A stretch of DNA of 64,000 nucleotides from Spirochaetota bacterium (GCA_965206985.1 CBDBLF010000011.1:91384-155383); one strand, 5' to 3'. Positions 1 to 56,896 are shown, counted from the first letter of the stretch. The notes: generated by a model from the letters alone, not told the origin. Program-made: numbers and translations.

Positions 1-775
1 TTTGATATTCTGATAAATTAATTTCTTTATATTTAATTGTTTTATTCAATGATTCGGCATGAGCGTTTTCATACACATTACCACGACACATGGAAATATT
101 GATTCTACTTTCTTCTAATAGAGCGATATACTCATTTGAGCAATATCTGACGTCAGCATCAGTATGATGGTAGTAATTTTGTAAATCTCCTATTTCTCTT
201 TTAAGCGAAAGAAAGGCTGCTATGACCAGTTGGGTGTTATTTTTATCAGAAATGGCCGCTCCTACGATACGGCGACTCATAAGCCTCATGAGCAAAGCTA
301 AATAGTGGTCTTTCGAATTAATATCAAAATAGGTTATATCGCCAACAATTACCTTGAAGGGATCAGCTTGCACACTTTTAATCAAATTGGGATATTTTCT
401 GAAATTATGCTTAGATTGGGTAGTTTTTGGCTTCAAAAACACCTTTTTAGTGCATAAAAGTCTATTTTCTTTCATAATTCGGTAAACTCGCTTCTTATTT
501 ATTGTAAAGCCTCTATCTTTTAGAATTTGCGTCATCGAGATATAACCTACTTGGTTCAATTGATCACTAATTTCATGGATAGATTTTAGAATCGTTGAAT
601 CATCTTTCTTCTCCTTCGACTTATAATAATAAGTTGACTTTTCTAGTTTCATAACTCTGCAACTCCTTGTGATCCCAAATTCTGTGCTGAGGCTATTCTT
701 GATAATTTCTCTTTTTGCCTGTATTCTTGAAGAAGTTTTTCCGTTTTTTTTAAAATCTGATTTTCTATCATTAAG
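1..775 (-). CDS. IS3 transposase OrfB (DDE), partial, reached by -1 frameshift
   Basis: Manual translation is open from 775 to base 1: CRVMKLEKSTYYY, INKKRVYRIMKENRL, VGDITYF, SRRIVG, HHTDADVRY, ISMCRGNVYENAHAESLNKTIK. Confidence 0.85.
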
Positions 776-999
776 TCAGATAAGGCCGATTCTAAATAGG
801 AAATTTTTTTTCTCAATTCTAACTCAACCCCATTTTTATCTTCAAAGCCTTCGGAAACCAGCTGTCGCTTCCATCTCGATAAAGTTGCGACTGAAATCAT
901 CTCTCTCTTAGATATTTCTGCCGTGCTAGTCTGACCTGAAATCATCTCCAAAGCCAATCTCTCTTTTGCTTCCTTACTGTATCTTTGTCTTTTAATCAT
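649..999 (-). CDS. IS3 transposase OrfA (HTH)
   Basis: RYSKEAK...ALEM...STAEISKREMIS..TLSRWK HTH pattern; AGGAGG RBS upstream of ATG at 999. Confidence 0.85.
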   Translation of the reverse strand: MIKRQRYSKEAKERLALEMISGQTSTAEISKREMISVATLSRWKRQLVSEGFEDKNGVELELRKKISYLESALSDLMIENQILKKTEKLLQEYRQKEKLSRIASAQNLGSQGVAEL

Positions 1000-1055
1000 A
1001 GTTTTACCTCCTAAATTTAACACAATAAAGTGTCCAGTTTTAGGGGGTTAAACCA

Positions 1056-3041
1056 TCTCTTACCTTCACAACAGAAAACCATAATCGACCACAAACGGTT
1101 ACCATCACATACCCCGAAGATATATATGCAAACGGGAATTTTCTATGTACGTTGAAACATACACTCACAACAGACGACCCTGTTTATCAAAATGTCTCGG
1201 AAGTGAACTTTCCTGAAGTGGTTCTTACCCTGAGTGATAATGATACACTTAATTTTCAGCCAATTGATAATAACGGTGCTTCCATCTCCTCTATAACAGG
1301 AAGAGAAGGCGAGACAACATCTTTTCAAATTAAGCCTTCGGTTACTTTGCACTCAGGAAGCACAATCACACTTGATGTGACCCCCTTGAATACCGACCAT
1401 ATTCAACTTGCTGACTCAAGTCAGAATTATAGCACAAGCCCCGTTCGGCTAACCTTTACAGACAGCAACCCTGTCATCGTCAATGTTAAGTTCATCGACA
1501 ATTCGGTGCAGACGACAGCGGATCTTCTTGCGACTAAAATTGTGTATTCTGTGGTAACGGACGGTGCAGATGCTCCTGTGATTAACGGAAAATTGTTTTC
1601 TCCTAACGGCGGTTTTGCTGAAGCCGGTGGTACATTAGACATCATGATTATAGATAATATTGCTGACGCTGACCGTGACGGTCTGATTGAAGTATGGAAT
1701 GCCACAATGCTAGACAACATGCGATATGATTTGGCAGGCACAAGTTATAAAACCTCGGCAACAGATCCAGGTGATTCCTCTGGTTGCCCAGCAGGTGGTT
1801 GTAACGGCTACGAGCTTACGGCGAATATTGATCTTTTAGACTTGCTTGATGCGAACAGGAGCGGCGAAATTGACAAGACCACGGTGACTTTTGCGAGCAA
1901 AGACCATACGGTGATTGATGTAAACAAAGATACCAGCTGGTCTCCGGTAGGTGACAACTCAACCAATAGTAATGCAAGCCGGTTTACGGGCACTTTCGAG
2001 GGTAACGGCCGCACCATCGCTAACTTGTGGGTGAATATTTCTTCTTCAGGTGATGCCTATGCAGGTTTATTTGGTCAGACTGATGGCTCAGCCGAGATAC
2101 GCAATGTGGGGGTTATCTCTGGTGGCGTTTCTGCTTCTCCTTTTGCTTCTTATTCCGGTGGTCTGGTGGGGCGTTCTTTTTCTTCCTTGACGATCACGAA
2201 TAGCTACTTTTCTGGGAGTGGTGATGTTTCTTCTTCTGCCATTAATGATTCTACTACTACTGAATCTTATTCTGGTGGTCTGGTGGGGAGTGTTTCTTCT
2301 GCTGCTTCTTTGACGATCACAAATAGCTACTTTTCTGGGAGTGGTGGTGTTTCTGCTTCTTCTGCTTCTTCTGCTTCTTCTGCTTCTTTTTCTTATTCCG
2401 GTGGTCTGGTGGGGCGTTCTTTTTCTTCCTTGACGATCACGAATAGCTACTTTTCTGGGAGTGGTGGTGTTTCTGCTTCTGCTTCTGCTTCTGCTTCTTC
2501 TTCTTCTGGTTCTAATTCTTATTCCGGTGGTCTGGTGGGTCTGGGTAATTTTTCTTCTTCTTTGACGATCACGAACAGCTACTTTTCTGGGAGTGGTGGT
2601 GTTTCTGCTTCTTCTTCGATTTCTTATTCCGGTGGTCTGCTGGGGCGTTCTTTTTCTTCTTTGACGATTACGAATAGCTACTTTTCTGGGAGTGGTGGTG
2701 TTTCTGCTTCTTCTTCTGGTGCGCTTTCTTATTCCGGTGGTCTGGTGGGGGGTTCTTCTAATACTCCTGTGATCATGAATAGTTATTGGAACATCGACGC
2801 ACCTCAATCAGGCGACAAGCGAGCGCAGGGTGATGCTGAGGCCGACCCCATGGGTGCGGTGAGGCTTACGCTCAATCAACTCAAAGCAACCAGTGGCACC
2901 TATCCTAATTTATTAGACAACACGTGGGATCTAGGCACCACGACGCAACTACCCGCAGTCAAACGATGCATCCTTGATATGGCGGGAACGGGCTGTGCAT
3001 CACCAGCTACATATAGCGAGCTACTCGCTGGGCAACGGTAG
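1056..3041 (+). pseudogene. GLUG-repeat beta-helix surface protein copy 1, 5'-truncated by IS3 (no signal peptide in the window)
   Basis: 1056-~1670 nearly identical to 4120-~4734; 2709-2964 identical to 5824-6079; 5 LTITNSYFSGSGGVS rungs; starts abruptly at the IS3 end. Confidence 0.85.
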
Positions 3042-3098
3042 GTAAAAAATCATAAATCGCATTAGATGCAAAACGTTGAATGCTAAGAAAAAAAACAC

Positions 3099-3149
3099 CT
3101 AGATGTTTTGGTTAATAATGCAGGTTATGGTTTGTATGGGTCAGTCATT
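3099..3149 (+). pseudogene. Relic of a short-chain dehydrogenase gene
   Basis: Translates LDVLVNNAGYGLYGSVI (SDR NNAG motif) with no surrounding ORF. Confidence 0.55.
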
Positions 3150-3327
3150 CTTTTCATGATATAATAACTTCTTTAAATTTGTTGTATAGGCTAGAATGAG
3201 AAGAAATAACCTCATAACAACCATATTTCCCACACAGCCTCTTTTAGAGAATGAATTTTCCATTTGGTTTTAGTATTCGACTAACCTTTCATTATACCAT
3301 TCAAAAAACTCATTAGATTTTTTCTTA

Positions 3328-3340
3328 TTTTTTTTTTTTT
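3328..3340 (+). repeat. Poly-T13 tract upstream of GLUG gene 2
   Basis: 13 consecutive T about 100 bp before the start codon at 3439. Confidence 0.9.
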
Positions 3341-3438
3341 CTCTGTTAATTCTTTTTTTCTCCGTTAATTCTATATATTGTTAGTTAAGTAAGTGCAAGG
3401 TAAGAACAGATAAGCTAGCCCATATAAAGAGTTTTATT

Positions 3439-6165
3439 GTGTGTGAAAAAAGAAGACGATTCATCTCTATTGTAATTTTTATAGTTAGGGGAATTTTGGT
3501 CTTAGCGATTTTTGGTTTTTCATTTCGGTGCGATGATCCGTTGGGCTTTCTTCTCGACGACACCAGTATGCGGGCGAGCGTAGACAAGCTTCTTGTTTAC
3601 GAGGGAAAATTGGCTTCCATTGGCTTTCGTCTTAACTCAAGTTTGTTTTCTGATGGAAAGTCAGCAACGCTTACCGCCAATTTAAGATGTAAAGGTCTGA
3701 GTAAGTCTGCACAAGCATCTCGCGTCACGATGGACAAAAACACGATTACGTGGACAAATTCTGACTGGGCAGCATGGAAAACATTTGTCTTCGATGCTCC
3801 TGATAATGAGAGGCAAGAGCCCTCTACAAATTGTGAACTCGTATTAGACCCCCTTGAGTCAAATGACGCTGGTTTTCATGGATTTAACAAGATTAAACCA
3901 ATTCCTGTTATTGTTCTCGACAATGACGGTGACGCAAATATTAAAGTGAGCTCTCGTAGTCTTGTGCTTCCCGAGGGCAGAAGTGTAAGTTATACGATTC
4001 GCTTAACAAATCGGCCTCATAATCAAGTGGAGGTGAACATTCTTCATAAAAATAACTTCCCTGAGTGGTTTTTGGTTTCCTCAAAACCAACCATTACAGT
4101 AGGAGGTGCCTATGTTAGCTCTCTTACCTTCACAACAGAAAATCATAATCGACCACAGACGGTTACCATCACATACCCCGAAGATATATATGCAAACGGG
4201 AATTTTCTATGTACGTTGAAACATACACTCACAACAGACGACCCTGTTTATCAAAATGTCTCGGAAGTGAACTTTCCTGAAGTGGTTCTTACCCTGAGTG
4301 ATAATGATACACTTAATTTTCAGCCAATTGATAATAACGGTGCTTCCATCTCCTCTTTAACAGGAAGAGAAGGCGAGACAACATCTTTTCAAATCAAGCC
4401 TCCGGTTACTTTGCACTCAGGAAGCACAATCACACTTGATGTGACCCCCATGAGCCCCGACCGTATTCAACTTGCTGACTCAAGTCAGAATTATAGCACA
4501 AGCCCCGTTCGGCTAACCTTTACGGACAGCAACCCTGTCATCGTCAATGTTAAGTTCATCGACGATTTGGTGGAGACGACGGCAGATCTTCTTGCGACTA
4601 AAATTGTGTATTCTGTGGTAACGGACGGTGCAGATGCTCCTGTGATTAACGGAAAATTGTTTTCTCCTAACGGCGGTTTTGCTGAAGCCGGTGGTACATT
4701 AGACATCATGATTATAGATAATATTGCTGACGATGACCGTGACGGTCTGATTGACATCTCCACTGCTACAATGCTAGACAACATGCGATATGATTTGGCG
4801 GGCACGAGTTATAAAACCTCGGCAACAGATCCAGGTGATTCCTCTGGTTGCCCAGCAGGTGGTTGTAACGGCTACGAGCTTACGGCAAATATTGATCTTT
4901 TAAACCTGCTTGATACGAATGGTAACGGCCAAATTGACAAGACCACGGTGACTGTTGCGGATGTTATGCATAGGGTGATTGATGTAAGCTCAGGCCAAGA
5001 TGAAAGTTGGGTTCCGGTGGGTAATAATGCAAACCGGTTTACGGGCACTTTCGAGGGTAACGGTCGCACCATCGCTAACTTGTGGGTGAATATTTCTCCT
5101 TCAGGTGATCACCATGCAGGTTTATTTGGTGTAACAGGTGACTCAGTTGCAATTCGTAATGTGGGTGTTGTCTCTGGTGGTGTTTCTGCTTCTGCTACGT
5201 TTTCTTATTCCGGTGGTCTGGTGGGTCTCTCTTCTTCTTCTTTGACGATCACAAATAGCTACTTTTCTGGGAATGGTGGTGTTTCTTCTTCTTCTCTTAC
5301 TGATGATTCTTATTCCGGTGGTCTGGTGGGGCGTTCTTTTTTTCCTTTGACGATCACGAATAGCTACTTTTCTGGGAGTGGTGGTGTTTCTGCTTCTGCT
5401 GGTTCGCTTTCTTATTCCGGTGGTCTGGTGGGTCAATCTACTAATTCTTTGACGATCACGAATAGCTACTTTTCTGGGAGTGGTGGTGTTTCTGCTTCTG
5501 CTTCTTCGCTTTCTTATTCCGGTGGTCTGGTGGGTTCTTCTTTTTTTTCTTTGACGATCACGAATAGCTACTTTTCTGGGAGTGGTGGTGTATTTTCTTC
5601 TGCTTCTGGTTCTTTTTCTTCTTCCGGTGGTCTGGTGGGACGTTCTTCTTCTTCTTTGACGATCACAAATAGCTACTTCTCTGGGAGTGGTGGTGTTTCC
5701 TCTTCTGCTTCTGCTTCTTCTGATCTTGTTTCTAGTTCTTATTCCGGTGGTCTGGTGGGTCTCTCTTCTTCTTCTTTGACGATCACAAATAGCTACTTTT
5801 CTGGGAGTGGTGGTGTTTCCTCTTCTTCTTCTGGTGCGCTTTCTTATTCCGGTGGTCTGGTGGGGGGTTCTTCTAATACTCCTGTGATCATGAATAGTTA
5901 TTGGAACATCGACGCACCTCAATCAGGCGACAAGCGAGCGCAGGGTGATGCTGAGGCCGACCCCATGGGTGCGGTGAGGCTTACGCTCAATCAACTCAAA
6001 GCAACCAGTGGCACCTATCCTAATTTATTAGACAACACGTGGGATCTAGGCACCACGACGCAACTACCCGCAGTCAAACAATGCACCCTTAATACCGCAA
6101 TGACGGGCTGTGCATCACCAGCTACGTATAGCGAGCTACTCGCTGGGCAACGTGTTAGCAATTGA
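3439..6165 (+). CDS. GLUG-repeat beta-helix surface lipoprotein copy 2 (Ig/Calx-beta-like N-terminal domains, 6 rungs)
   Basis: Basic N-region, hydrophobic stretch and FSFRC lipobox; Ig-like segments; DxDxDG motifs; GGLVG / ITNSY.SG.V GLUG repeats; C-terminal Cys pair. Confidence 0.85.
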   Translation: MCEKRRRFISIVIFIVRGILVLAIFGFSFRCDDPLGFLLDDTSMRASVDKLLVYEGKLASIGFRLNSSLFSDGKSATLTANLRCKGLSKSAQASRVTMDKNTITWTNSDWAAWKTFVFDAPDNERQEPSTNCELVLDPLESNDAGFHGFNKIKPIPVIVLDNDGDANIKVSSRSLVLPEGRSVSYTIRLTNRPHNQVEVNILHKNNFPEWFLVSSKPTITVGGAYVSSLTFTTENHNRPQTVTITYPEDIYANGNFLCTLKHTLTTDDPVYQNVSEVNFPEVVLTLSDNDTLNFQPIDNNGASISSLTGREGETTSFQIKPPVTLHSGSTITLDVTPMSPDRIQLADSSQNYSTSPVRLTFTDSNPVIVNVKFIDDLVETTADLLATKIVYSVVTDGADAPVINGKLFSPNGGFAEAGGTLDIMIIDNIADDDRDGLIDISTATMLDNMRYDLAGTSYKTSATDPGDSSGCPAGGCNGYELTANIDLLNLLDTNGNGQIDKTTVTVADVMHRVIDVSSGQDESWVPVGNNANRFTGTFEGNGRTIANLWVNISPSGDHHAGLFGVTGDSVAIRNVGVVSGGVSASATFSYSGGLVGLSSSSLTITNSYFSGNGGVSSSSLTDDSYSGGLVGRSFFPLTITNSYFSGSGGVSASAGSLSYSGGLVGQSTNSLTITNSYFSGSGGVSASASSLSYSGGLVGSSFFSLTITNSYFSGSGGVFSSASGSFSSSGGLVGRSSSSLTITNSYFSGSGGVSSSASASSDLVSSSYSGGLVGLSSSSLTITNSYFSGSGGVSSSSSGALSYSGGLVGGSSNTPVIMNSYWNIDAPQSGDKRAQGDAEADPMGAVRLTLNQLKATSGTYPNLLDNTWDLGTTTQLPAVKQCTLNTAMTGCASPATYSELLAGQRVSN

Positions 6166-14500: not shown

Positions 14501-14554
14501 TTGAGTACTCTTGTTAGATAACGTTTGTTGTAAAGAATATTTTTTAATAACGAT

Positions 14555-15830
14555 GGGAGAGAGAAGGATGATAGTACCCCCCTACGACCATCATTAGTTG
14601 GTTCAGAATTGGTTCAAATCAAGTTATTTGGTTCAAAAGGCTTGGGTTTACTGGTAGAGCAAGTGAAAGACATTTTCCTAAAAAAGGTGCATCAAAAGGC
14701 CGACGTTAAATCATCAAATAAAACAGAGGTTCCTAATGAAGCACCCTTCTCAGGTTATTTGTCTAAACAGGTATTCGGCAGTAATGCGAAATAGTAAAGA
14801 CAAAAAGTTATACAGAATGCAAATGGTTCATTATGCCAAGAAGCATGGTTTCAAGCCAACAGCCAGAATGTTTAAAACGACTGTAAAAACAGTAAAAAAG
14901 TGGTTTCGTAGGTTTGAATCAGAGAAATACGTTGGCTTGGAAGACAAGAGCCACGCTCCACACTACTCACCACATGCAATCACAGACTTTGAAAAGGCTT
15001 ATGTTTGCTTTCTTAAAAAGAAACGTCGAGGCTTTGGTGCTCAGGAACTGAAGAATGTTTACCAACTAGACTTGAGTGTCAAGGCCATTCGCAGAGCGTG
15101 GAGGGAGCAAGCACTCTTGAAAAAAAAGCGTAGAAAACATAAAACGAAGCAAAATTTGCGTGAAATTAAGAAATTATGGGGTTTATTTAAGCAATTTGAC
15201 GTAGATACGAAGCATTTATACGATATTCCTGAGCTTTGGCCTTATATTCAGGAAAATATTGTACCGAAATATCAATATACCTTCAGAGAAGTTTTTTCTG
15301 GCTTACAATTTCTAGCTTTTGCAGATGAGTATAATATGGCATACTCTTGTCTGTTTATGGAGGTAATTTTAGATCATCTTGTAAAATCAGGGGTTGATTT
15401 AAAGAAAAATAATACGAGAGGGCAAACAGATAATGGCTCAGAGTTTATTGGTGCTTGGAATAAAAAAGGAGATTCGGAGTTTACAAAAGTATTAGCCAGT
15501 TATGGTGTGCCACACCAGACGATCCCTGCTGGAGCGCATACTTGGCAGTCTGATGTTGAAACGACTCATAGATTGATTGAGGATCACCTTTACCTGAATG
15601 AAACGTATAATTCAAGAGAAGACTTTCTCAACAAAGCTGGCTCCTATCTATTGATGTTCAATTCAATAAGAAAAAATTCTTACAAAGAGAATAAATCGCC
15701 CTGGCAGCTGATCCGAGAGGAAAGCACAACTATTGACAAACAAATATTAAATTTACCACCGTTTCGACTGGACTATTTATTTCAAAAGATGCCAATGGTC
15801 GTAGGGGGGTACAATCCTATTCTCCATCCC
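14555..15830 (+). mobile_element. IS481-like insertion sequence, copy 1 (1276 bp)
   Basis: Imperfect IRs GGGAGAGAGAAGGATGATAGTACCCCCCTACGAC / GTCGTAGGGGGGTACAATCCTATTCTCCATCCC; direct repeat TATTTTTTAATAACGAT at 14538-14554 and 15831-15847; matches 22948-24223. Confidence 0.9.
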
Positions 15831-15869
15831 TATTTTTTAATAACGATAGAACAAGTAAGAAGGCTTTAA
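14736..15869 (+). CDS. IS481-like DDE transposase (stop codon lies outside the element)
   Basis: N-terminal HTH, DVDTK, QTDNGSEF, QSDVE..H.LIE. Confidence 0.88.
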   Translation: MKHPSQVICLNRYSAVMRNSKDKKLYRMQMVHYAKKHGFKPTARMFKTTVKTVKKWFRRFESEKYVGLEDKSHAPHYSPHAITDFEKAYVCFLKKKRRGFGAQELKNVYQLDLSVKAIRRAWREQALLKKKRRKHKTKQNLREIKKLWGLFKQFDVDTKHLYDIPELWPYIQENIVPKYQYTFREVFSGLQFLAFADEYNMAYSCLFMEVILDHLVKSGVDLKKNNTRGQTDNGSEFIGAWNKKGDSEFTKVLASYGVPHQTIPAGAHTWQSDVETTHRLIEDHLYLNETYNSREDFLNKAGSYLLMFNSIRKNSYKENKSPWQLIREESTTIDKQILNLPPFRLDYLFQKMPMVVGGYNPILHPYFLITIEQVRRL

Positions 15870-22864: not shown

Positions 22865-22947
22865 CTTTTCTCAAGCGGCTAAATGCACAACGCCTGCCAC
22901 TCTTTCATTTTTTATAACATGGTCAAGATTTATTTTTTACCCATTTT

Positions 22948-24223
22948 GGGAGAGAGAAGGATGATAGTACCCCCCTACGACCATCATTAGTTGGTTCAGA
23001 ATTGGTTCAAATCAAGTTATTTGGTTCAAAAGGCTTGGGTTTACTGGTAGAGCAAGTGAAAGACATTTTCCTAAAAAAGGTGCATCAAAAGGCCGACGTT
23101 AAATCATCAAATAAAACAGAGGTTCCTAATGAAGCACCCTTCTCAGGTTATTTGTCTAAACAGGTATTCGGCAGTAATGCGAAATAGTAAAGACAAAAAG
23201 TTATACAGAATGCAAATGGTTCATTATGCCAAGAAGCATGGTTTCAAGCCAACAGCCAGAATGTTTAAAACGACTGTAAAAACAGTAAAAAAGTGGTTTC
23301 GTAGGTTTGAATCAGAGAAATACGTTGGCTTGGAAGACAAGAGCCACGCTCCACACTACTCACCACATGCAATCACAGACTTTGAAAAGGCTTATGTTTG
23401 CTTTCTTAAAAAGAAACGTCGAGGCTTTGGTGCTCAGGAACTGAAGAATGTTTACCAACTAGACTTGAGTGTCAAGGCCATTCGCAGAGCGTGGAGGGAG
23501 CAAGCACTCTTGAAAAAAAAGCGTAGAAAACATAAAACGAAGCAAAATTTGCGTGAAATTAAGAAATTATGGGGTTTATTTAAGCAATTTGACGTAGATA
23601 CGAAGCATTTATACGATATTCCTGAGCTTTGGCCTTATATTCAGGAAAATATTGTACCGAAATATCAATATACCTTCAGAGAAGTTTTTTCTGGCTTACA
23701 ATTTCTAGCTTTTGCAGATGAGTATAATATGGCATACTCTTGTCTGTTTATGGAGGTAATTTTAGATCATCTTGTAAAATCAGGGGTTGATTTAAAGAAA
23801 AATAATACGAGAGGGCAAACAGATAATGGCTCAGAGTTTATTGGTGCTTGGAATAAAAAAGGAGATTCGGAGTTTACAAAAGTATTAGCCAGTTATGGTG
23901 TGCCACACCAGACGATCCCTGCTGGAGCGCATACTTGGCAGTCTGATGTTGAAACGACTCATAGATTGATTGAGGATCACCTTTACCTGAATGAAACGTA
24001 TAATTCAAGAGAAGACTTTCTCAACAAAGCTGGCTCCTATCTATTGATGTTCAATTCAATAAGAAAAAATTCTTACAAAGAGAATAAATCGCCCTGGCAG
24101 CTGATCCGAGAGGAAAGCACAACTATTGACAAACAAATATTAAATTTACCACCGTTTCGACTGGACTATTTATTTCAAAAGATGCCAATGGTCGTAGGGG
24201 GGTACAATCCTATTCTCCATCCC
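22948..24223 (+). mobile_element. IS481-like insertion sequence, copy 2
   Basis: Same IRs and body as 14555-15830; direct repeat TTATTTTTTACCCATTT at 22930-22946 and 24224-24240. Confidence 0.9.
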
Positions 24224-24271
24224 TTATTTTTTACCCATTTGAAACAAAATAAGAGGTTGGGAAGGAAATAG
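23129..24271 (+). CDS. IS481-like DDE transposase, copy 2 (different C-tail from flanking DNA)
   Basis: Same as copy 1 up to NPILHP, then LFFTHLKQNKRLGRK. Confidence 0.88.
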   Translation: MKHPSQVICLNRYSAVMRNSKDKKLYRMQMVHYAKKHGFKPTARMFKTTVKTVKKWFRRFESEKYVGLEDKSHAPHYSPHAITDFEKAYVCFLKKKRRGFGAQELKNVYQLDLSVKAIRRAWREQALLKKKRRKHKTKQNLREIKKLWGLFKQFDVDTKHLYDIPELWPYIQENIVPKYQYTFREVFSGLQFLAFADEYNMAYSCLFMEVILDHLVKSGVDLKKNNTRGQTDNGSEFIGAWNKKGDSEFTKVLASYGVPHQTIPAGAHTWQSDVETTHRLIEDHLYLNETYNSREDFLNKAGSYLLMFNSIRKNSYKENKSPWQLIREESTTIDKQILNLPPFRLDYLFQKMPMVVGGYNPILHPLFFTHLKQNKRLGRK

Positions 24272-35530: not shown

Positions 35531-37416
35531 GAGCTTGTGCAGGAACTAGGATTTTTCAGTGCATTTTATGAGATATTTGCTGCGTCAGTCTCATTTTTCA
35601 AATATGTCAAGGAATTTATAGTTTATGCAAGTTGTTCTCGTACCATTTTGCCAAAATTAAATGCTGTAGCTGCGATTTTTACCTCTATTTGAACCTTTTT
35701 ACTGCCTCTGAGCAAGAATTCTCTGAACTTTTTGGCTTGTTTCAAAATTCCAAAAATGGGTTCAATTTCAGAACCTCGCTTTTTATAGAAAGACTTTGCT
35801 TCTTCTGAATTCATCTTCTTGATCATTTCATGTTTTAAAGCAAAACCAGAGTCTACTGACAATTTGCGATAACCTCTGCGTAACTCTTCTTCGCTCGTAC
35901 AACATTGTTCTCTGGCAGGGCAAATGACACAGTCAGGAGGTTTACCATGATAATGAGTATATTTCTTTTTATCTTTCACAGATTCATTATGAAATTCTAA
36001 GGTTTTACCCTCGGGGCAAACCCAAGAATCATCATCCTCGTCATATTTAAACTGATGAGCTTCATAACCTGAATCCTCTTCTCCTTTTCTTTCTTTGGCT
36101 ACCTGATCAGGTGAAGGTATAAAACCATTGATCCCTTTTGAATCCAGGTATTCCAAACCACTTGAATGAAAGTAACCCGAATCTGCAGAAGCTGTCTGTA
36201 TACTGGTCCCTGTGTTTGACTCAGCTTTAGAAAGGGTAGGAGCTAATTGCTCTAAATCATTTTCTGAATTAGCTTCAGCAATGTCAGCTGCCAAAATATA
36301 GCCTTCTGATGAGGTAACTTGAATGTTGTAGCTTTGAGAAATTTTACCATTCCGTTTCATGAATTTAGCATCTGGATCAGTAAGATTTATTTTAGAATCA
36401 GAAGCAGACTCTTGATTCTCTTCCAGACTTTTACTGATCGTAACATACTTTTGAGCTTTCCTAAGCATAACAGAATCATTATCCTCTGCAGCCTGGTCTT
36501 CATTTATCAATAATTCTGGCTCGTTAGCATGAGAATTAGTTGTATCTTCTAAAAAGACCTCAACTTCTTTTTCTCCTGTTTTTAGAGCTTCTATATCCTG
36601 TGTACCTTCTATAGTTTCTGAAGAATCTTTTTCAACAGATGTAGAAAACTCGGCTGGTTCACTTTGCTTTCCTTCTGCTGTTTTTAATGACTCTCTCTTT
36701 GCCTTTTCACTCGCTTTTTGTAAGCGAATAAACTCCTCAATGATCGTATCTACCTCTTCAGGATTAAGCTCATAGCCACTGTTGTCTTTACCATATAGTT
36801 TATCTTCCTCAATATCTAATTCCATACCTGAGCGTAGATACTCTAAGATCTCTTGCTGTATAGCTCTTTTACGTTCCTCTAAATCTGACTTTTTGTATGT
36901 TTGATCGTCAGCAGCACTGGCTTTGATTTTAGTTCCATCTACCTTAACATCAATACCAATATTTTTCTTTTTGTGGGATAGCAAAGATACAGAGTAATTA
37001 AAAACTTCGCCAATTTCTTTACCAAAATTAACACGGAATTCAGCAATAGACCGAAACTTTACTTTATGACCACCAACTAAATAACGCATGGCGTCGTTCT
37101 CTTCACAGGCTTTTTGTAATTCTCTGCTGCTTCTCCATCCACGATGAAAGCCATAAAAAAGGCATCCCAGCATTATAACCGGATGGTAAGCCCGACCCCC
37201 TTCTTTTGAGTACTTAGAAAGAAATGGTTTCATAGGAATTTTATCTAACAAGGCAGCAAAGGCATAAACCTCGTGATTTTCTTCTAAATTGTCTGCTATA
37301 GTATGCGAAAACAGCATAACTTGATCTCTATCACTTTTCATAAATCGTTTCATAATAAGACATAAACAAAGAAAAACACAGAAAAGCAAGAAAAATCCTA
37401 GTTCCTGCACAAGCTC
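35531..37416 (-). mobile_element. IS1182-family insertion sequence, copy 1 (1886 bp)
   Basis: Perfect IR GAGCTTGTGCAGGAACTAGGATTTTT; 4-bp duplication CTGT (35527-30, 37417-20). Confidence 0.92.
35623..37353 (-). CDS. IS1182 transposase
   Basis: GGRAYHP..ML, SSREL, FRSIAEFR, VDGTKIKA, TDPDA.FM, ADSGY, CP.G..L, YKKRG.EIEP.FG; ORF-track start (37455) is outside the IR. Confidence 0.92.
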   Translation of the reverse strand: MKRFMKSDRDQVMLFSHTIADNLEENHEVYAFAALLDKIPMKPFLSKYSKEGGRAYHPVIMLGCLFYGFHRGWRSSRELQKACEENDAMRYLVGGHKVKFRSIAEFRVNFGKEIGEVFNYSVSLLSHKKKNIGIDVKVDGTKIKASAADDQTYKKSDLEERKRAIQQEILEYLRSGMELDIEEDKLYGKDNSGYELNPEEVDTIIEEFIRLQKASEKAKRESLKTAEGKQSEPAEFSTSVEKDSSETIEGTQDIEALKTGEKEVEVFLEDTTNSHANEPELLINEDQAAEDNDSVMLRKAQKYVTISKSLEENQESASDSKINLTDPDAKFMKRNGKISQSYNIQVTSSEGYILAADIAEANSENDLEQLAPTLSKAESNTGTSIQTASADSGYFHSSGLEYLDSKGINGFIPSPDQVAKERKGEEDSGYEAHQFKYDEDDDSWVCPEGKTLEFHNESVKDKKKYTHYHGKPPDCVICPAREQCCTSEEELRRGYRKLSVDSGFALKHEMIKKMNSEEAKSFYKKRGSEIEPIFGILKQAKKFREFLLRGSKKVQIEVKIAATAFNFGKMVREQLA

Positions 37417-48641: not shown

Positions 48642-49038
48642 TTACGGCAGAAAAAGGGTTGGTCTCGCTGTAACCGATGAGGTTCATCGATTAATAACCC
48701 CCTTAGCTCAGGTTCAATTTAATCAGAAAAACTCATGGGCGGAGCTATTTCATGTGATTCAAGAAAATAACCCTCAAAAAATTATAATAGGGGACCCTGA
48801 CTCTCAGACCAATCAACAAGTAAGACAAGAAATTCTTGATTTCAAGAAAAAACTTGGTAAACTATTTCCTAAGATCACCTTTACTTTCTTTGATGAGAGC
48901 TACTCTTCAAAAGAAGCCAAGGACATTGTAATTGAACTGAGTGGCTATGGCTTTAAGAAAGTAAAAAAGAGAAAAGATAAACTAGACTCCGTGGCCGCCG
49001 CCTTAATTTTGCAAAGATACTTAGAAGCTTTTTTATAA
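48619..49038 (+). CDS. ruvX: Holliday junction resolvase-like RuvX/YqgF
   Basis: [35 protein letters not shown]. Confidence 0.92.
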
Positions 49039-49084
49039 TACAATTTCTGTGAAAAAGCATGTTTATTGGCTTCATAAGTATCTT

Positions 49085-49414
49085 TTCCTGGGCCTACATC
49101 AATCACCGTATGCATTTGACTCGCAACAGTCACCGTGGTCTTGTCAATTTGGCCGTTATCATTCGCATCAAGCAGGTTTAGCTGAGGTTTTATAGATCGT
49201 TCCTGCCAAAGTGTAACGTATGTTGTTTAGCCTCGGCACTGGAGATTTCAATCAGATCGTCACCGTCAGCGTCAACTGTTACATTGCCACCATTGCTACT
49301 TGGAGCATTATTATTATTACACTGAAATAAAAAGCCCAAGGCGACAAAAGCCAGTACCCATAGTAACCTTATTGAATGATTGTCTTGTTCTTTTATACAT
49401 AATAAATTATACAC
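49085..49414 (-). pseudogene. GLUG lipoprotein family copy C: frameshifted, internally deleted, 3'-truncated
   Basis: LGFLFQC lipobox, DADGDDLIEISSAE/(shift)/LNNIRYTLAGT.YKTS/(deletion)/LNLLDANDNGQIDKTTVTVA; 49122-49158 identical to 4923-4959. Confidence 0.82.
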
Positions 49415-49456
49415 AACAAACCCCTTCTGGGCTAGCTTATTAGCTCACCCAGAGCC

Positions 49457-49485
49457 ACTATACAGTGAACAGTACCGAAAGTCAA
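49457..49485 (-). promoter_or_regulatory. Putative sigma70 promoter of GLUG copy C
   Basis: TTGACT-17-TATAGT, same hexamers as upstream of copies A and B. Confidence 0.65.
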
Positions 49486-49525
49486 CAAAAAAAGTTAGAG
49501 CTGTTGGGAGAGAGAAGGATGATAG

Positions 49526-51411
49526 GAGCTTGTGCAGGAACTAGGATTTTTCAGTGCATTTTATGAGATATTTGCTGCGTCAGTCTCATTTTTCAAATAT
49601 GTCAAGGAATTTATAGTTTATGCAAGTTGTTCTCGTACCATTTTGCCAAAATTAAATGCTGTAGCTGCGATTTTTACCTCTATTTGAACCTTTTTACTGC
49701 CTCTGAGCAAGAATTCTCTGAACTTTTTGGCTTGTTTCAAAATTCCAAAAATGGGTTCAATTTCAGAACCTCGCTTTTTATAGAAAGACTTTGCTTCTTC
49801 TGAATTCATCTTCTTGATCATTTCATGTTTTAAAGCAAAACCAGAGTCTACTGACAATTTGCGATAACCTCTGCGTAACTCTTCTTCGCTCGTACAACAT
49901 TGTTCTCTGGCAGGGCAAATGACACAGTCAGGAGGTTTACCATGATAATGAGTATATTTCTTTTTATCTTTCACAGATTCATTATGAAATTCTAAGGTTT
50001 TACCCTCGGGGCAAACCCAAGAATCATCATCCTCGTCATATTTAAACTGATGAGCTTCATAACCTGAATCCTCTTCTCCTTTTCTTTCTTTGGCTACCTG
50101 ATCAGGTGAAGGTATAAAACCATTGATCCCTTTTGAATCCAGGTATTCCAAACCACTTGAATGAAAGTAACCCGAATCTGCAGAAGCTGTCCGTATACTG
50201 ATCCCTGTGTTTGACTCAGCTTTAGAAAGGGTAGGAGCTAATTGCTCTAAATCATTTTCTGAATTAGCTTCAGCAATGTCAGCTGCCAAAATATAGCCTT
50301 CTGATGAGGTAACTTGAATGTTGTAGCTTTGAGAAATTTTACCATTCCGTTTCATGAATTTAGCATCTGGATCAGTAAGATTTATTTTAGAATCAGAAGC
50401 AGACTCTTGATTCTCTTCCAGACTTTTACTGATCATAACATACTTTTGAGCTTTCCTAAGCATAACAGAATCATTATCCTCTGCAGCCTGGTCTTCATTT
50501 ATCAATAATTCTGGCTCGTTAGCATGAGAATTAGTTGTATCTTCTAAAAAGACCTCAACTTCTTTTTCTCCTGTTTTTAGAGCTTCTATATCCTGTGTAC
50601 CTTCTATAGTTTCTGAAGAATCTTTTTCAACAGATGTAGAAAACTCGGCTGGTTCACTTTGCTTTCCTTCTGCTGTTTTTAATGACTCTCTCTTTGCCTT
50701 TTCACTCGCTTTTTGTAAGCGAATAAACTCCTCAATGATCGTATCTACCTCTTCAGGATTAAGCTCATAGCCACTGTTGTCTTTACCATATAGTTTATCT
50801 TCCTCAATATCTAATTCTCTACCTGAGCGTAGATACTCTAAGATCTCTTGCTGTATAGCTCTTTTACGTTCCTCTAAATCTGACTTTTTGTATGTTTGAT
50901 CGTCAGCAGCACTGGCTTTGATTTTAGTTCCATCTACCTTAACATCAGTACCAATATTTTTCTTTTTGTGGGATAGCAAAGATACAGAGTAATTAAAAAC
51001 TTCGCCAATTTCTTTACCAAAATTAACACGGAATTCAGCAATAGACCGAAACTTTACTTTATGACCACCAACTAAATAACGCATGGCGTCGTTCTCTTCA
51101 CAGGCTTTTTGTAATTCTCTGCTGCTTCTCCATCCACGATGAAAGCCATAAAAAAGGCATCCCAGCATTATAACCGGATGGTAAGCCCGACCCCCTTCTT
51201 TTGAGTACTTAGAAAGAAATGGTTTCATAGGAATTTTATCTAACAAGGCAGCAAAGGCATAAACCTCGTGATTTTCTTCTAAATTGTCTGCTATAGTATG
51301 CGAAAACAGCATAACTTGATCTCTATCACTTTTCATAAATCGTTTCATAATAAGACATAAACAAAGAAGAACACAGAAAAGCAAGAAAAATCCTAGTTCC
51401 CGCACAGCCTC
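49526..51411 (-). mobile_element. IS1182-family insertion sequence, copy 2 (1886 bp)
   Basis: Near-identical to 35531-37416; upstream IR is the variant GAGGCTGTGCGGGAACTAGG. Confidence 0.92.
49618..51348 (-). CDS. IS1182 transposase, copy 2
   Basis: A few substitutions relative to copy 1; start set inside the IR. Confidence 0.92.
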   Translation of the reverse strand: MKRFMKSDRDQVMLFSHTIADNLEENHEVYAFAALLDKIPMKPFLSKYSKEGGRAYHPVIMLGCLFYGFHRGWRSSRELQKACEENDAMRYLVGGHKVKFRSIAEFRVNFGKEIGEVFNYSVSLLSHKKKNIGTDVKVDGTKIKASAADDQTYKKSDLEERKRAIQQEILEYLRSGRELDIEEDKLYGKDNSGYELNPEEVDTIIEEFIRLQKASEKAKRESLKTAEGKQSEPAEFSTSVEKDSSETIEGTQDIEALKTGEKEVEVFLEDTTNSHANEPELLINEDQAAEDNDSVMLRKAQKYVMISKSLEENQESASDSKINLTDPDAKFMKRNGKISQSYNIQVTSSEGYILAADIAEANSENDLEQLAPTLSKAESNTGISIRTASADSGYFHSSGLEYLDSKGINGFIPSPDQVAKERKGEEDSGYEAHQFKYDEDDDSWVCPEGKTLEFHNESVKDKKKYTHYHGKPPDCVICPAREQCCTSEEELRRGYRKLSVDSGFALKHEMIKKMNSEEAKSFYKKRGSEIEPIFGILKQAKKFREFLLRGSKKVQIEVKIAATAFNFGKMVREQLA

Positions 51412-51889: not shown

Positions 51890-53665
51890 TTACCGTTGCC
51901 CGTTGAGTAGATCGCCATACATAGCTGGTGATGCACAGCCTATCATTGTTGCATTCAAGATGCATCGTTTGACGGCGGGGTTTTGCTGGTCAGTGCCTAA
52001 ATCCCACGCGTCGCCTAAATCAGGAAAAGCGCCGCTCGTTGCTTGCAGTTGGGTGAGCGTAAGCCCCACCGCACCCATGGGGTCGGCTGTAGCATCACCC
52101 TGCACTCGCTTGGGATTCTGGGGCGACCCATCTGTTGATTGAGGTGCGTCGGCGTTCCAATAGCTATTCGTGATCGTAAAAGTGGCATCAGAAGACCCCA
52201 CCAGACCACCGGAATAAGATTTAGAAGAAGAAGAAGAAACACCACCACTTCCAGAAAAATAGCTATTTGTGATCGTCAAAGAAGAAGAAAAACCCACCAG
52301 ACCACCGGAAAAAGAAAAAGAAGAACCAGAAGAAGCAGAAACACCACCACTCCCAGAAAAGTAGCTATTCGTGATCGTCAAAGAAACCGAAGAAGAACCC
52401 ACCAGACCACCGGAAGAAGAAGAAGAAGAAGAAGAAGAAGAAGAAACACCACCACTCCCAGAAAAATAGCTATTCGTGATCGTCAAAGTGGCATCAGAAG
52501 ACCCCACCAGACCACCGGAAAAAGAAGAAGAAGAAGAAGAAGAAGAAACGCCACCACTCCCAGAAAAGTAGCTGTTCGTGATCGTCAAAGAAGAAGAAGA
52601 ACCCACCAGACCACCGGAAGAAGAAGAAGAAGAAGAAGAAGAAACGCCACCACTCCCAGAAAAGTAGCTATTCGTGATCGTCAAAGAAGGAGAAAAACCC
52701 ACCAGACCACCGGAATAAGAAAAAGAAGAAGCATCAGAAGAAACACCACCAGAGATAACTCCTACATTGCGTATCTGAGCTGGGGTACCAGCTCGACCAA
52801 ATAAACCTGCATAGGCATTGCCTGAAGAAGAAATATTCACCCATAAACTAGCGATGGTGTAACCGTTACCCTCAAAAGTGCCCGTAAACCCGCCTGTGTC
52901 ATCACCCACTGGAACCCAACTGGTATCTTCGCTTACATCAATCACCATATGGTCTTTGCCCGCAACAGTCTTTTTGACCATGTTAATTTCGCCGTTACCG
53001 TTCGTATCAAGCAGGGGTAATAAATAAATGTTGGCCATGAGCTCGTAACCATTGCAACCACCTGTTGGGCAACCTTCATTGTCACCTGCATCCATTCTCG
53101 AGATTTTATAACTTGTGCCCGCCAAATCATAACGCATGTTGTCTAGCATTGTGGCAGTCCATATTTCGATGAGCCCATCGCTGTCAGAATCGGGCATGTA
53201 CGGCGTTACCGTTACGTTGACCGTATCATTCATCATGGCAAATTCAGTGAAATCCGCGTCATGCGATGCGCCCATGGCTATGTCATGGGTTATGGTACCT
53301 GTTATCTCGGTCATAATCATATCATCTGCATCACCTTCTCTTTTTACGGTAATCGTCTGGGGACTCGCACTAGTAGGCGCAAACGTAACCTCTGTTGGGG
53401 ATACCTCAAGAAAATCATTTGTGGAGGTTAGGGTTACTTTTACTGTTTTTCTTTCTGATGGTGGGCGCGACGCCGAAATCGTGTAGGTGGCACCCACTGC
53501 CCCACTCACGTCGCTGAAGGTGATTTCTGGAGTGCTGAGCTTTAAATTGGCCGGAGGGTCGTCGTCACTCTTACCGCATTGAAATAAAAAGCCCAAGACG
53601 AATATTAATAATATACCTCTCACCATTTTATTGCGCGCTCCATTCATTCTAGTATTTAGACTCAT
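51890..53665 (-). CDS. GLUG-repeat beta-helix surface lipoprotein copy B (5 rungs)
   Basis: GGAGG RBS, LGFLFQC lipobox, one Ig-like domain, DSDSDG motif, GLUG rungs with poly-Ser loops. Confidence 0.88.
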   Translation of the reverse strand: MSLNTRMNGARNKMVRGILLIFVLGFLFQCGKSDDDPPANLKLSTPEITFSDVSGAVGATYTISASRPPSERKTVKVTLTSTNDFLEVSPTEVTFAPTSASPQTITVKREGDADDMIMTEITGTITHDIAMGASHDADFTEFAMMNDTVNVTVTPYMPDSDSDGLIEIWTATMLDNMRYDLAGTSYKISRMDAGDNEGCPTGGCNGYELMANIYLLPLLDTNGNGEINMVKKTVAGKDHMVIDVSEDTSWVPVGDDTGGFTGTFEGNGYTIASLWVNISSSGNAYAGLFGRAGTPAQIRNVGVISGGVSSDASSFSYSGGLVGFSPSLTITNSYFSGSGGVSSSSSSSSSGGLVGSSSSLTITNSYFSGSGGVSSSSSSSSFSGGLVGSSDATLTITNSYFSGSGGVSSSSSSSSSSSGGLVGSSSVSLTITNSYFSGSGGVSASSGSSFSFSGGLVGFSSSLTITNSYFSGSGGVSSSSSKSYSGGLVGSSDATFTITNSYWNADAPQSTDGSPQNPKRVQGDATADPMGAVGLTLTQLQATSGAFPDLGDAWDLGTDQQNPAVKRCILNATMIGCASPAMYGDLLNGQR

Positions 53666-53716: not shown

Positions 53717-53744
53717 ACTATAAATAGTATGTGTACCAAGTCAA
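53717..53744 (-). promoter_or_regulatory. Putative sigma70 promoter/operator of GLUG copy B
   Basis: TTGACT-16-TATAGT; near-palindrome ATACTAT-TT-ATAGTAC over the -10. Confidence 0.6.
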
Positions 53745-54011: not shown

Positions 54012-55829
54012 TTACCGTTGCCCGTCGAGTAGGTCGCCATACATAGCTGGTGATGCACAAGTCCCCGTTCCCGCCATATCAAGGATGCATCGTTTGACCG
54101 CGGGGAGTTGCTGCTCAGTGCCTAAAACCCACGCGTCGCCCAATAAATCAGGAAAGGTGCCACTCGTTGCTTGTAGTTCAGCGAGTGTAAGCCTCACCGC
54201 ACCCGTGGGGTCGGTCATCTCATCACCCCGCGCTCGCTTGGGATTCTGGGGCGACCCGTCTACTAATTGAGGTGCGTCGGTGTTCCAATAGCTATTCGTG
54301 ATCGTCAAAGAATCAGAAGAGAAACCCACCAGACCACCGGAATAAGAAATCGAAGAAGAGGAAGAAGAAACATCACCACTCCCAGAAAAATAGCTATTTG
54401 TGATCGTCAAAGTACCAATAGCAACACCCACCAGACCGCCAGAAGAAGAAAGCGAAGAAGAAGAAGAAGAAGAAGAAACACCACCACTCCCAGAAAAGTA
54501 GCTATTCGTGATCATAGAAGTGGCATCAGAAGAACCCACCAGACCACCGGAATAAGAAATCGAAGAAGAGGAAGAAGAAGAAACACCACCACTCCCAGAA
54601 AAGTAGCTATTCGTGATCGTCAAAGAAGAAGAAGAAGAACCCACCAGACCGCCAGAAGAAGAAATCGAAGAAGAGGAAGAAGAAGAAACACCACCACTCC
54701 CAGAAAAGTAGCTATTCGTGATCGTCAAAGAAAAAGAAGAAGAAGAAGAACCCACCAGACCACCAGAGAAAGAAGAAGAAGAAGCATCAGAAGAAACACC
54801 ACCACTCCCAGAAAAATAGCTATTCGTGATCGTCAAAGAAGCATCAGAACGCCCCACCAGACCGCCGGAAGAAGAAGAAGCAGAAACACCACCACTCCCA
54901 GAAAAATAGCTATTCGTGATCGTCAAAGAAGCATCAGAACGCCCCACCAGACCGCCGGAAGAAGAAGCATCAGAAACATCGCCAGAGATAATTCCTACAT
55001 TGCGTATCTCGGCTGAACCACCTGTCGCACCAAAGAAACCCGCATTGACATTGCTTGTAGAACTCACCCGGATGTTTGCGATCGTGTGGCCGTTACCCTC
55101 AAAAGTGCCCGTAAACCGGCTTCCACTATTACCTACCGGAACCCAACTGGCGTTTGAGCCTATATCAATCTTGGCCATGAGCTCGTAGCCGTTGCAACCT
55201 GTGTCTGGGCAACCTCTACTGTCATCTGCATCCATTGCCGAGGCTTTATAACTCGTGCCCGCCAGATCATGTCGCATCTTGTCTAGCATTCTGCCAGTCC
55301 ATATTTCAATGAGCCCATCGCCGTCAGAATCGGGGATATACGGCGTTACCGTCACGTTGACCATGCTCCCCATCATGGCAAATTCAGCGAACTCGGTGTC
55401 AGTAGTTATGGCATGCTCTATGGTACCTATTATCTCGTCCATAATAATATCAACCGCATCATTTGCTCTTTTTACGGTAATCGTCTGGGGGCTCGCATTC
55501 GTAGGCGTAAACATAACCCGCTTTGGGGATACCCCAAGCGATGGATCGGTGGAGGTTAGTTTTACCTCTATTGTTTTCTCTGCTGATGGTGGGCGTGACG
55601 CCGAAATCATGTAGGTGGCACCCATTGCCCCACTCACGTCGCTGAAGGTGACCTCTTGAGTACTGAGCTCTAAGGTGACCAGAGCAGGGTCGTCATCTTT
55701 GGCAGAGTCACCGTCTTTGACAGAATCGTCGCCTTTACCGCATTGAAATAAAAAGCCCAAGACGAATATTAATAATATACCCCTCACCATTTTACTAAAC
55801 ACTCCATTCATTCTAAGATTTAGACTCAT
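54012..55829 (-). CDS. GLUG-repeat beta-helix surface lipoprotein copy A (6 rungs)
   Basis: Tandem paralog of copy B; same leader and lipobox; lacks the DTNGNG segment. Confidence 0.88.
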   Translation of the reverse strand: MSLNLRMNGVFSKMVRGILLIFVLGFLFQCGKGDDSVKDGDSAKDDDPALVTLELSTQEVTFSDVSGAMGATYMISASRPPSAEKTIEVKLTSTDPSLGVSPKRVMFTPTNASPQTITVKRANDAVDIIMDEIIGTIEHAITTDTEFAEFAMMGSMVNVTVTPYIPDSDGDGLIEIWTGRMLDKMRHDLAGTSYKASAMDADDSRGCPDTGCNGYELMAKIDIGSNASWVPVGNSGSRFTGTFEGNGHTIANIRVSSTSNVNAGFFGATGGSAEIRNVGIISGDVSDASSSGGLVGRSDASLTITNSYFSGSGGVSASSSSGGLVGRSDASLTITNSYFSGSGGVSSDASSSSFSGGLVGSSSSSFSLTITNSYFSGSGGVSSSSSSSISSSGGLVGSSSSSLTITNSYFSGSGGVSSSSSSSISYSGGLVGSSDATSMITNSYFSGSGGVSSSSSSSSLSSSGGLVGVAIGTLTITNSYFSGSGDVSSSSSSISYSGGLVGFSSDSLTITNSYWNTDAPQLVDGSPQNPKRARGDEMTDPTGAVRLTLAELQATSGTFPDLLGDAWVLGTEQQLPAVKRCILDMAGTGTCASPAMYGDLLDGQR

Positions 55830-55880: not shown

Positions 55881-55911
55881 ATACTATAAATAGTATAGTG
55901 TACTAAGTCAA
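55881..55911 (-). promoter_or_regulatory. Putative sigma70 promoter/operator of GLUG copy A
   Basis: TTGACT-17-TATAGT; perfect palindrome ATACTAT-AA-ATAGTAT at 55881-55896. Confidence 0.65.
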
Positions 55912-55932: not shown

Positions 55933-56236
55933 GGTCGTGTCATATTTAATCAAAGTTTCCAATTAAAAAAGGAATTGACTTATCTCCCTTAAATTAAGGT
56001 TATGTCTCATTATGAACAAAAGAAAATATACCTTTGATACAAGTGGTTTTAGCTGTCAAAATACAGACTGCCATAAGTATCATAAGGTAAATGAAGGAAA
56101 TGTGCGCTTTGCTTATATGTCTGGTAAGTACAAACAAATAGCCTATTTAAAGTGCACCGCTTGTGGTAGATGCTTTTCAGAGAATAAAGGCACTATTTTT
56201 TTTCGTCGCAAGAAAAGCAAAGAAACCATTACTCGG
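55933..56236 (+). mobile_element. Truncated IS1 (left IR plus 5' part of insA)
   Basis: Matches the reverse complement of about 17623-17926; breaks off at ACCATTACTCGG and joins the phage sheath gene. Confidence 0.9.
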
Positions 56237-56894: not shown

Positions 56895-56896
56895 GA

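Follow-up and report, generated by a model that had tools for sequence, protein, structure and literature searches.

The window analysed here is a 64,000-nt stretch of a Spirochaetota bacterium assembly (GCA_965206985.1, CBDBLF010000011.1:91384-155383; coordinates below are positions in this whole stretch). It contains four paralogous genes, copies 1 to 4, which lie as two pairs at loci 50 kb apart (Table 1) and encode arrays of tandem GLUG repeats, hereafter rungs. The explanation that we favour, with a probability of about 0.7, is that these genes belong to a paralogous family of GLUG beta-helix surface proteins under concerted evolution, through unequal crossover or slippage between rungs, occasional gene conversion between genes and triplet slippage in serine tracts. 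The member family is new, and its kind is known from GLUG beta-helix repeat proteins and from tandem-repeat surface-protein families under concerted evolution. A first-pass annotation of the same DNA had proposed a VlsE-like diversification system built on a different fold, with hypervariable loops on a constant scaffold; its account of the repeats and of sequence exchange held up well, and its programmed mechanism did not. The anatomy of the genes, the fold as a prediction, the codon identity, the conversion tract and the differences in rung number between genomes are shown by the analysis; that the proteins lie at the surface, how the arrays change and whether this has adaptive value are inferred.

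Four arrays of near-identical rungs

The repeat pattern is real. The 42-nt block TTGACGATCACGAATAGCTACTTTTCTGGGAGTGGTGGTGTT was matched 22 times in the window at up to three mismatches and never in any shuffle, with the sites divided over four open reading frames (ORFs) as 5, 6, 5 and 6 in copies 1, 2, 3 and 4, which are the rung counts that had been reported before. A second block of 20 nt had 26 matches where none were expected by chance, one per rung and one per cap rung. The longer block encodes LTITNSYFSGSGGV and the shorter one YSGGLVG, so that a translated rung of 30–42 residues reads GGLVG-x(4-7)-LTITNSYFSGSGGV-x(4-16)-YS, and the closing rung of every array ends in NSYWN (the cap). 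Rung units measure 90–126 nt, and Tandem Repeats Finder gave periods of 96–126 nt in the arrays.

The 42-nt cores carry 0–3 differences out of 42 nt. Whole rungs are 78–94% identical, and no two of them are the same. Whole-rung identity is 78–81% in all classes, whether the rungs compared come from the same gene, from a neighbouring gene or from loci 50 kb apart, and nearest-neighbour rungs often sit in different genes. The arrays also lift local GC to 0.45–0.47.

Arrays of 500–700 nt built from ~100-nt units are hard for short reads, and rung number or order could be wrong through collapsed or mis-joined repeats. We consider such an assembly artefact extremely improbable, as the reading frame is kept throughout the four arrays and every rung has loops of its own, the contig is 735 kb long, and an independent ENA assembly, ERZ25069296 (L003; family genes at 101–1814 and 3522–5070, ~82–86% identical to those of the window), has the same architecture.

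Two further features of the arrays were set aside. Arg-rich antisense ORFs of 221–259 aa lie over each array and were judged to be by-products of the stop-free repeats, because TCT reads AGA on the opposite strand. Terminator-like hairpins within the arrays were no more numerous than in shuffles.

Family size and host

A homology search returned ~55 strong relatives, all of them proteins without a name, from a handful of long contigs of metagenome-assembled genomes (MAGs). The contig of the window holds at least four of them, P0016 and P0029 among these, a 544-kb contig 10 and a 2.13-Mb contig 9. The family is a large paralogous one, with at least six members on the window's contig and ~10 per related genome. 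In a scan of one genome per species, a single distant Leptospiria MAG (the 2.13-Mb contig) matched; one of its members (L001) has divergent rungs, complex loops and unconserved codons and is not homogenised, and in another (L002) the loops are rich in Ser/TCT and double rungs are duplicated. Two metagenome scans and one viral scan with the block or the family were negative, and literature searches on GLUG with Leptospira or with beta-helix found nothing relevant.

For the chorismate synthase (AroC) encoded in the window, identity is 88% with the nearest relative, 79% with the Leptospiria MAG and ~61–63% with Turneriella and with MAGs labelled Leptospiraceae. The organism is therefore an uncultured, deep-branching member of the class Leptospiria, and nothing indicates host association of this spirochaete.

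Predicted fold and its relatives

All four copies match the Pfam Glug profile above its gathering cut-off of 20.5 bits (36.6, 23.3, 29.3 and 30.8 bits for copies 1–4). The same scan found nothing beyond the GLUG motif, NCBIfam gave no family, and neither a protease nor another catalytic domain was detected in the four copies. An initial structure model, built for the whole of copy 3 from 10 sequences, had a predicted local distance difference test score (pLDDT) of 46.5 and no significant fold match, and was replaced. The second AlphaFold2 model, of copy 3 residues 156–591 with a 42-sequence family alignment, reached a pLDDT of 86.7 (94–98 across the array) and a predicted template modelling (TM) score of 0.84. 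It forms a regular solenoid with three strands per turn; the Ser tracts take the form of strands in this model, not of floppy loops. Foldseek gave 3n6z as the best PDB match (E = 5.6e-6, TM 0.48/0.60), next the IgA1 metalloproteases 7uvl, 7uvk and 6xjb at probability 1.0, and then pectate lyases and tailspikes. The family profile aligns weakly (E = 0.15) to chain positions 224–316 of 6xjb, placed at approximately residues 888–980, within the beta-helix of IgA1 protease, which spans residues 781–1070 (PMC7695701). The predicted fold is a GLUG beta-helix, in agreement with the earlier assignment.

Each ~100-nt rung would accordingly make one turn of a three-stranded solenoid, with the 42-nt and 20-nt blocks encoding its structural core. 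The Ser tracts, written (TCT)n or (TCT GCT)n, are placed by the model inside the helix as its third, Ser-rich side.

Known GLUG beta-helix domains (PF07581; Bacteroides ovatus BACOVA_03286, which is 3n6z; the N-terminal beta-helix of the M26 IgA1 metalloproteases 6xjb, 7uvl and 7uvk) share with this family the motif grammar GGLVG ... I.NSY. G and the predicted fold. The family differs from them in lacking a detectable protease or other catalytic domain, in having a spirochaete-type leader with Cys, and in that its rungs are homogenised in DNA, its Ser tracts are TCT-encoded and its members number ~10 per genome. Chlamydial Pmp proteins are another large surface-protein family, in which one beta-helix coil after another is marked by the short repeated motifs GGA(I,L,V) and FxxN (PMC11166332, PMC10715098). 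This rung grammar resembles GGLVG and NSYF at the level of motifs, but Pmp are autotransporters with a beta-barrel and no beta-barrel was seen in the family here. Rungs with near-identical DNA are not known from Pmp. Bordetella pertactin is a beta-helix surface protein whose (GGxxP)n and (PQP)n regions vary in length between strains; it is a single-gene autotransporter with repeats in two loops, whereas here the repeats form the rungs themselves, in a multigene family.

Export and lipidation

Copies 3 and 4 open with a basic, then hydrophobic leader, a signal peptide that ends in an invariant FLFQC with the lipobox-like FQC. After it come an N-domain rich in strands (beta-sandwich-like in copy 3), the beta-helix and a C-terminal cap domain, which is conserved. 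F-Q-C recurs in most relatives, including the short forms and two of the long-form orthologues of copies 1 and 2 (P0003 and P0004). The lipobox-like leader site of copy 2 is FSFRC (window 3520–3531), with Arg at −1, as in the other two long-form orthologues (P0002 and P0005), and lipidation of the long form may differ from that of the short forms. Lipoprotein status, which had been given to the family as a whole, is plausible for copies 3 and 4 from the leader and FQC, and doubtful for copy 2; copy 1 has no leader. We read the proteins as exported, probably lipid-anchored and putatively adhesin-like surface proteins.

Synonymous sites and codon usage

The blocks are alike at the DNA level well beyond what codon usage would give. 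Among 18 rungs coding exactly LTITNSYFSGSGGV, pairwise codon mismatch was 0.11, against 0.66 expected from window codon usage, and for SGGLVG it was 0.18 against 0.73. Rare codons are fixed by position in the blocks at both loci (AGC, 11%; GGG, 13%; CTG, 9%; TCC, 10%). Codon bias was rejected as the source on these grounds, and block identity is therefore a matter of common descent or homogenisation. Nei-Gojobori proportions of synonymous differences (pS) in the blocks were 0.14–0.18 at all three distances, for rungs of the same gene, of neighbours and of loci 50 kb away.

The first-pass annotation had described the constant blocks as conserved even at synonymous sites across loci 50 kb apart. 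We found that this is so in relation to codon bias; in relation to the flanks it applies between the loci but not consistently. For between-locus pairs, codon mismatch at identical residues was 0.12–0.16 in blocks versus 0.22–0.26 in flanks, and the block consensus of one locus departs from that of the other at 1 of 20 codons (P about 0.02–0.05). For within-locus pairs, and for pairs with the two L003 genes, blocks (0.13–0.21) were no better conserved than flanks (0.06–0.24). Special conservation of the blocks over the flanks was therefore rejected as marginal between loci and absent in the other comparisons.

Synonymous divergence (dS) in the pre- and post-array flanks was 0.07–0.63, and the ratio of nonsynonymous to synonymous divergence (dN/dS) between paralogues was ~0.4–0.65. 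The family is young or broadly homogenised, with proteins that diverge quickly, and flanking domains changing at this rate would be expected of exposed proteins. The non-repeat domains diversify at the protein level at least as strongly as the loops, an example being the insert LLDxNGNGxID...VIDV..DTSW.

GC content at third codon positions was 0.44 for the flanks of the family genes, 0.50 for their constant blocks and 0.12 for their loops, against 0.33 in background ORFs (16 other window ORFs). Foreign origin, biased gene conversion or codon selection are possible reasons for the raised family value.

One motif stands out by its spelling. GGLVG is written GGY GGT CTG GTG in 25/25 motifs of the window and 11/11 of L003, and CTG is its Leu codon in 20 of the 28 motifs of L004 and 5 of the 7 of L002; in background codon use CTG accounts for 0–14% and GTG for 4–18%. 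The spelling GGT CTG GTG GG creates CTGGTGG, which has 7/8 bases of E. coli Chi, in every rung (for example at 2163–2169, 5218–5224 and 52198–52204). The four family genes hold 30 of the 35 window occurrences; the other 5 are all on the + strand.

These figures could mean that the block sequence is itself functional, as a Chi-like hotspot or as an RNA or DNA structure, and that this freezes its synonymous sites. The recurrence of CTGGTGG in the four genes and the shared rare-codon spelling in the window, L003, L004 and L002 would both follow. We nevertheless regard such nucleotide-level constraint as very unlikely: CTGGTGG is not enriched outside the family (5 occurrences versus 3.5 expected for the whole window), with the reservation that the Chi reference is that of E. 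coli and may not be that of this lineage; the divergent L001 member does without these codons; and the excess of block over flank conservation has the marginal and inconsistent character described above.

Rung cores also fall into discrete haplotypes. In L003, rungs of the SGSGG type read AGC TAC TTT TCT GGG AGT and those of the SGEGG type AGT TAT TTC AGC GGT GAA, with five linked synonymous differences, and each type is present in both L003 genes. The four genes of the window have the SGSGG type only, and P0029 on the same contig has SGEGG rungs.

Gene conversion between copies 1 and 2

Just downstream of their arrays, copies 1 and 2 have 258 nt exactly in common (reported before as 256 bp; Table 1), and they have further exact tracts of 198 and 148 nt upstream. 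Upstream identity is ~96% over ~780 nt (1086–1866; sliding comparison), close to the earlier estimate by eye of ~97% over ~600 bp. Inside the arrays the longest common exact match is 57 nt. The pair as a whole is a mosaic, in which a divergent patch at 1866–1980 is followed by the rearranged arrays, the identical post-array tract, divergence from 2955 and unrelated sequence downstream.

The C-terminal tails mark two orthologous lineages, as copy 2, P0005 and P0003 end in VSN and copy 1, P0002 and P0004 do not, and the last 24 residues of copy 1 are the same as those of P0004. The post-array segment of copy 1 is 94% identical to copy 2 versus 67–88% to the orthologues. From this comparison we read the 258-nt tract as a gene-conversion tract, the post-array segment of copy 1 having been converted by copy 2, in line with the earlier proposal that the paralogues swap sequence. 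Occasional conversion of this kind, seen in copies 1 and 2, would keep the cores and some flanks alike across the family. Exact matches between the two loci (copies 1/2 versus copies 3/4) are at most 55 nt, and a recent transfer of whole rungs between loci was rejected on this account.

Gain and loss of rungs

The long-form orthologues P0002, P0005, P0004 and P0003 carry 3, 3, 4 and 5 TNSYF-type rungs, versus 5 and 6 in copies 1 and 2, in proteins whose shared N-terminal region is 92–99% identical; the comparison spans probably different species, as the nearest AroC is 88% identical. Across the family, rung number reaches 11. Rungs are thus added and dropped, as had been suggested, and tandem duplication together with unequal crossover or slippage between rungs would alter their number.

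In group B Streptococcus alpha C/Rib and Mycoplasma Vlp/Vsa proteins, the copy number of in-frame, near-identical repeats varies between strains by recombination or slippage, which changes the exposed length. The family here is like these size-variable proteins in that repeat number differs between related genomes. The repeats of alpha C/Rib and Vlp/Vsa are usually identical whole units, and their variation has been shown experimentally, whereas here only the cores are near-perfect and the rungs as wholes are not.

Serine tracts in the loops

The loops had been called hypervariable, a description that does not fit their composition. Of 327 loop codons, 216 are Ser (66%), and 199 of these 216 are TCT (92%), versus a 27% share of TCT among Ser codons in housekeeping ORFs of the window. 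About half of the non-TCT loop codons (52%) are one substitution from TCT (e.g. GCT, TTT, ACT, TCG, TCC, CCT). This low-complexity, poly-Ser make-up marks the loops as triplet microsatellites with scattered point changes. Pure (TCT)9-11 runs occur in the array of copy 3, where the + strand shows them as GAA, and point substitutions unique to single loops are present. Triplet slippage and point mutation would make the Ser tracts longer or shorter.

Some loops of copy 2, three in number, can be followed into its orthologue P0005. Loops 2–4 of copy 2 (SASAGSLSYS, SASASSLSYS and FSSASGSFSSS) have counterparts in the same order (SSSAGSFSYS, SASADSLSYS and TSSASGSFSYS), with 1–2 substitutions each according to our comparison. 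The loops differ by ~15% between the two proteins and the pre- and post-array domains by 16–28%, so the loops, retained in order, are no more variable than the flanking domains. GLUG proteins of other taxa share the regularity of a constant scaffold with variable corners, which therefore belongs to this kind of repeat at large and is no peculiarity of the loci studied here.

A diversity-generating retroelement was also rejected, as the variation consists of length changes and TCT-derived codons and not of adenine-specific substitutions; no reverse transcriptase was present among the ten neighbouring ORFs scanned.

Comparison with VlsE and TprK

The vls system has one expression site and contiguous silent cassettes ~90% identical to its central region, and conversion is random, segmental and unidirectional (PMC11499132, PMC2632889). 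The family here resembles VlsE and TprK as a set of probable spirochaete surface lipoproteins in which invariant and variable segments alternate and gene conversion joins related sequences. It differs from vls in consisting of full genes, an IS-made pseudogene (IS, insertion sequence) and an array-less relic only, in its fold, and in its poly-Ser variable parts.

A programmed system in which donor segments are copied into an expressed copy, varying the loops on a constant scaffold, would account for the alternation of constant and variable segments, for the exchange between paralogues, for a promoterless, truncated copy 1 beside an intact copy, and for rung haplotypes common to several genes. 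It is very improbable here all the same. Within the window, searches with the 42-nt and 20-nt blocks and with tblastn revealed no contiguous silent-cassette array and no orphan blocks outside the four family genes, the sole other fragment being the relic at 49078–49525. The donors would be full genes with promoters and signal peptides of their own, as copies 3 and 4 are independently equipped, and copy 1 is promoterless because of an IS insertion. The short exact matches between loci and the absence of identical rungs are against it too, as are loops that are poly-Ser and not diverse epitopes, with three of them unchanged in order in P0005, and a scaffold regularity that GLUG proteins of other taxa show as well. 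The closest named relatives of the organism are Turneriella and the MAGs labelled Leptospiraceae, with no host association known.

Concerted evolution or a contingency system

Several observations weigh against concerted evolution as the whole account. The rare CTG GTG spelling of GGLVG is present across three or four genomes, which neutral concerted evolution within a genome does not predict. Discrete rung haplotypes in different genes suggest movement of entire rung cores from gene to gene. As every rung is distinct, duplication and conversion are not of very recent date, and the near-perfect cores are less readily explained by homogenisation alone. Finally, the loci are known from one assembly, and a high switching rate would move the family towards a contingency system. 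The rare-codon motif and the haplotypes keep a reading of that type alive at low probability.

Such a contingency system, working at high frequency and without cassettes, would have selection keep the 42- and 20-nt cores and the long (TCT)n runs so that RecA or slippage events resize the helix and its Ser face, with altered adhesion, or altered recognition by phages or grazers, as the consequence. The minimal homology usually quoted for RecA recombination is ~25–30 nt in E. coli, and the cores are about as long or longer; the pure (TCT)9-11 runs are long enough to slip. The arrays of copies 1 and 2 differ while their flanks are 96–100% identical, rung number is different in every orthologue, and the rare codons that form CTGGTGG are conserved across genomes. 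We still judge this unlikely, given that the rungs are all distinct, that their loops bear unique point substitutions, that P0005 retains the order of three copy 2 loops and that the metagenome scans for the block or the family were negative. Less likely again is an "accordion" form of the beta-helix, for which we see only a slim chance, where selected cores with the Chi-like CTGGTGG and (TCT)n would let rung number, rung order and Ser-face length change at high frequency, with shuffling among ~10 paralogues. If true, a free-living spirochaete would be varying its surface in response to phages or grazers, and antibodies would play no part. More generally, within-population variation of the arrays, if it occurs, would extend repeat-driven surface variation to beta-helix rungs, in an organism without known host association.

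Concerted evolution, if it is the right explanation, would provide a clean, well-documented case among solenoid surface proteins in a barely known spirochaete branch, useful for annotation, as the proteins so far go without a name, and for understanding how beta-helix length evolves. The conservation of GGT CTG GTG GG across genomes would then remain as a small unexplained point.

Gene copies, relics and neighbouring elements

Table 1 Family genes and associated features of the window
Feature	Coordinates	Strand	Details
IS3-family insertion sequence, clipped by window edge	1..1053	-	Partial orfB 2-646, orfA 649-1023; Pfam rve + HTH_21, HTH_Tnp_1
Copy 1, 5'-truncated pseudogene of the long form	1056..3041	+	5 TNSYF rungs + NSYW cap; array ~2151-2749
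258-nt tract same as copy 2 5822-6079	2707..2964	+	Exact match; last rung to LPAVK
Copy 2, 908-aa long form	3439..6165	+	~430-aa N-terminal extension; 6 rungs + cap; array ~5206-5864
Second copy of IS1182-like element	35531-37411		99.6% identical to 49526-51406
Decayed relic of a fifth member	49078..49525	-	Upstream region + ~140 first codons; frameshifted, internally deleted, without array
IS with DDE_Tnp_1_6/DUF772 transposase	49526..51406	-	Between relic and copy 3; read as IS1182-like
Copy 3, 591-aa short form	51890..53665	-	5 rungs + cap; array ~52197-52717
Promoter-like TTGACT-16-TATAGT of copy 3	53717..53744	-	~50 nt 5' of ATG, then AGGAGG ribosome-binding site
Copy 4, 605-aa short form	54012..55829	-	6 rungs + cap; array ~54325-54962
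Promoter-like TTGACT-17-TATAGT of copy 4	55883..55911	-	~50 nt 5' of ATG; leader region conserved with that of copy 3

IS elements have broken some members of the family, leaving copy 1 truncated and a fifth member as a relic. The similarity between copies 1 and 2 has a sharp edge at 1056, which corresponds to about codon 226 of copy 2 and abuts the IS3-family element; relative to copy 2, copy 1 therefore lacks ~226 N-terminal codons, the start codon and the signal peptide, and is a pseudogene made by the IS3-family insertion. The description of the four genes as full-length or near-full-length paralogues, sound in its rung counts, thus does not extend to this copy. The relic is wedged between ruvX (48619–49038) and the IS1182-like element. 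Its tblastn matches lie in different frames, and its nucleotides match L003 3401–3941 at 85–97%; the intact counterpart is the second family gene of L003, with which it shares QIDKTTVTVASQMHTVIDVGP.KDT. Copies 3 and 4 each have their own set of promoter-like site, AGGAGG ribosome-binding site and signal peptide.

Upstream of copy 2, a T13 run is followed by a 19-nt direct repeat (TTTTTTTCTCCGTTAATTC, 2.1 copies) at 3328–3372, ~70–110 nt from the start, and no strong sigma-70-like site was found near them. A length-variable promoter element at this position is conceivable.

A phage-like cluster on the - strand (56229–64000), probably a prophage or remnant, lies directly upstream of copy 4. It includes a Phage_capsid_4 protein (59066–60100), a DUF2586 ORF that matches just profile positions 2–130 of 386, and several ORFs without a family; its 548-aa ORF contains a tandem repeat with a 69-nt unit at 63706–63868 (2.4 copies, 96% matches).

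Two other IS copies, at 14554–15832 and 22947–24224, have ORFs of 377 and 380 aa with faint HTH_28/HTH_32 matches. They are 100% identical over ~1279 nt to an IS at L003 2143–3421, which lies between the two family genes of that assembly. With the family genes only ~82–86% identical, either this IS has passed between relatives in recent times, or a single lineage contains surface genes that differ greatly.

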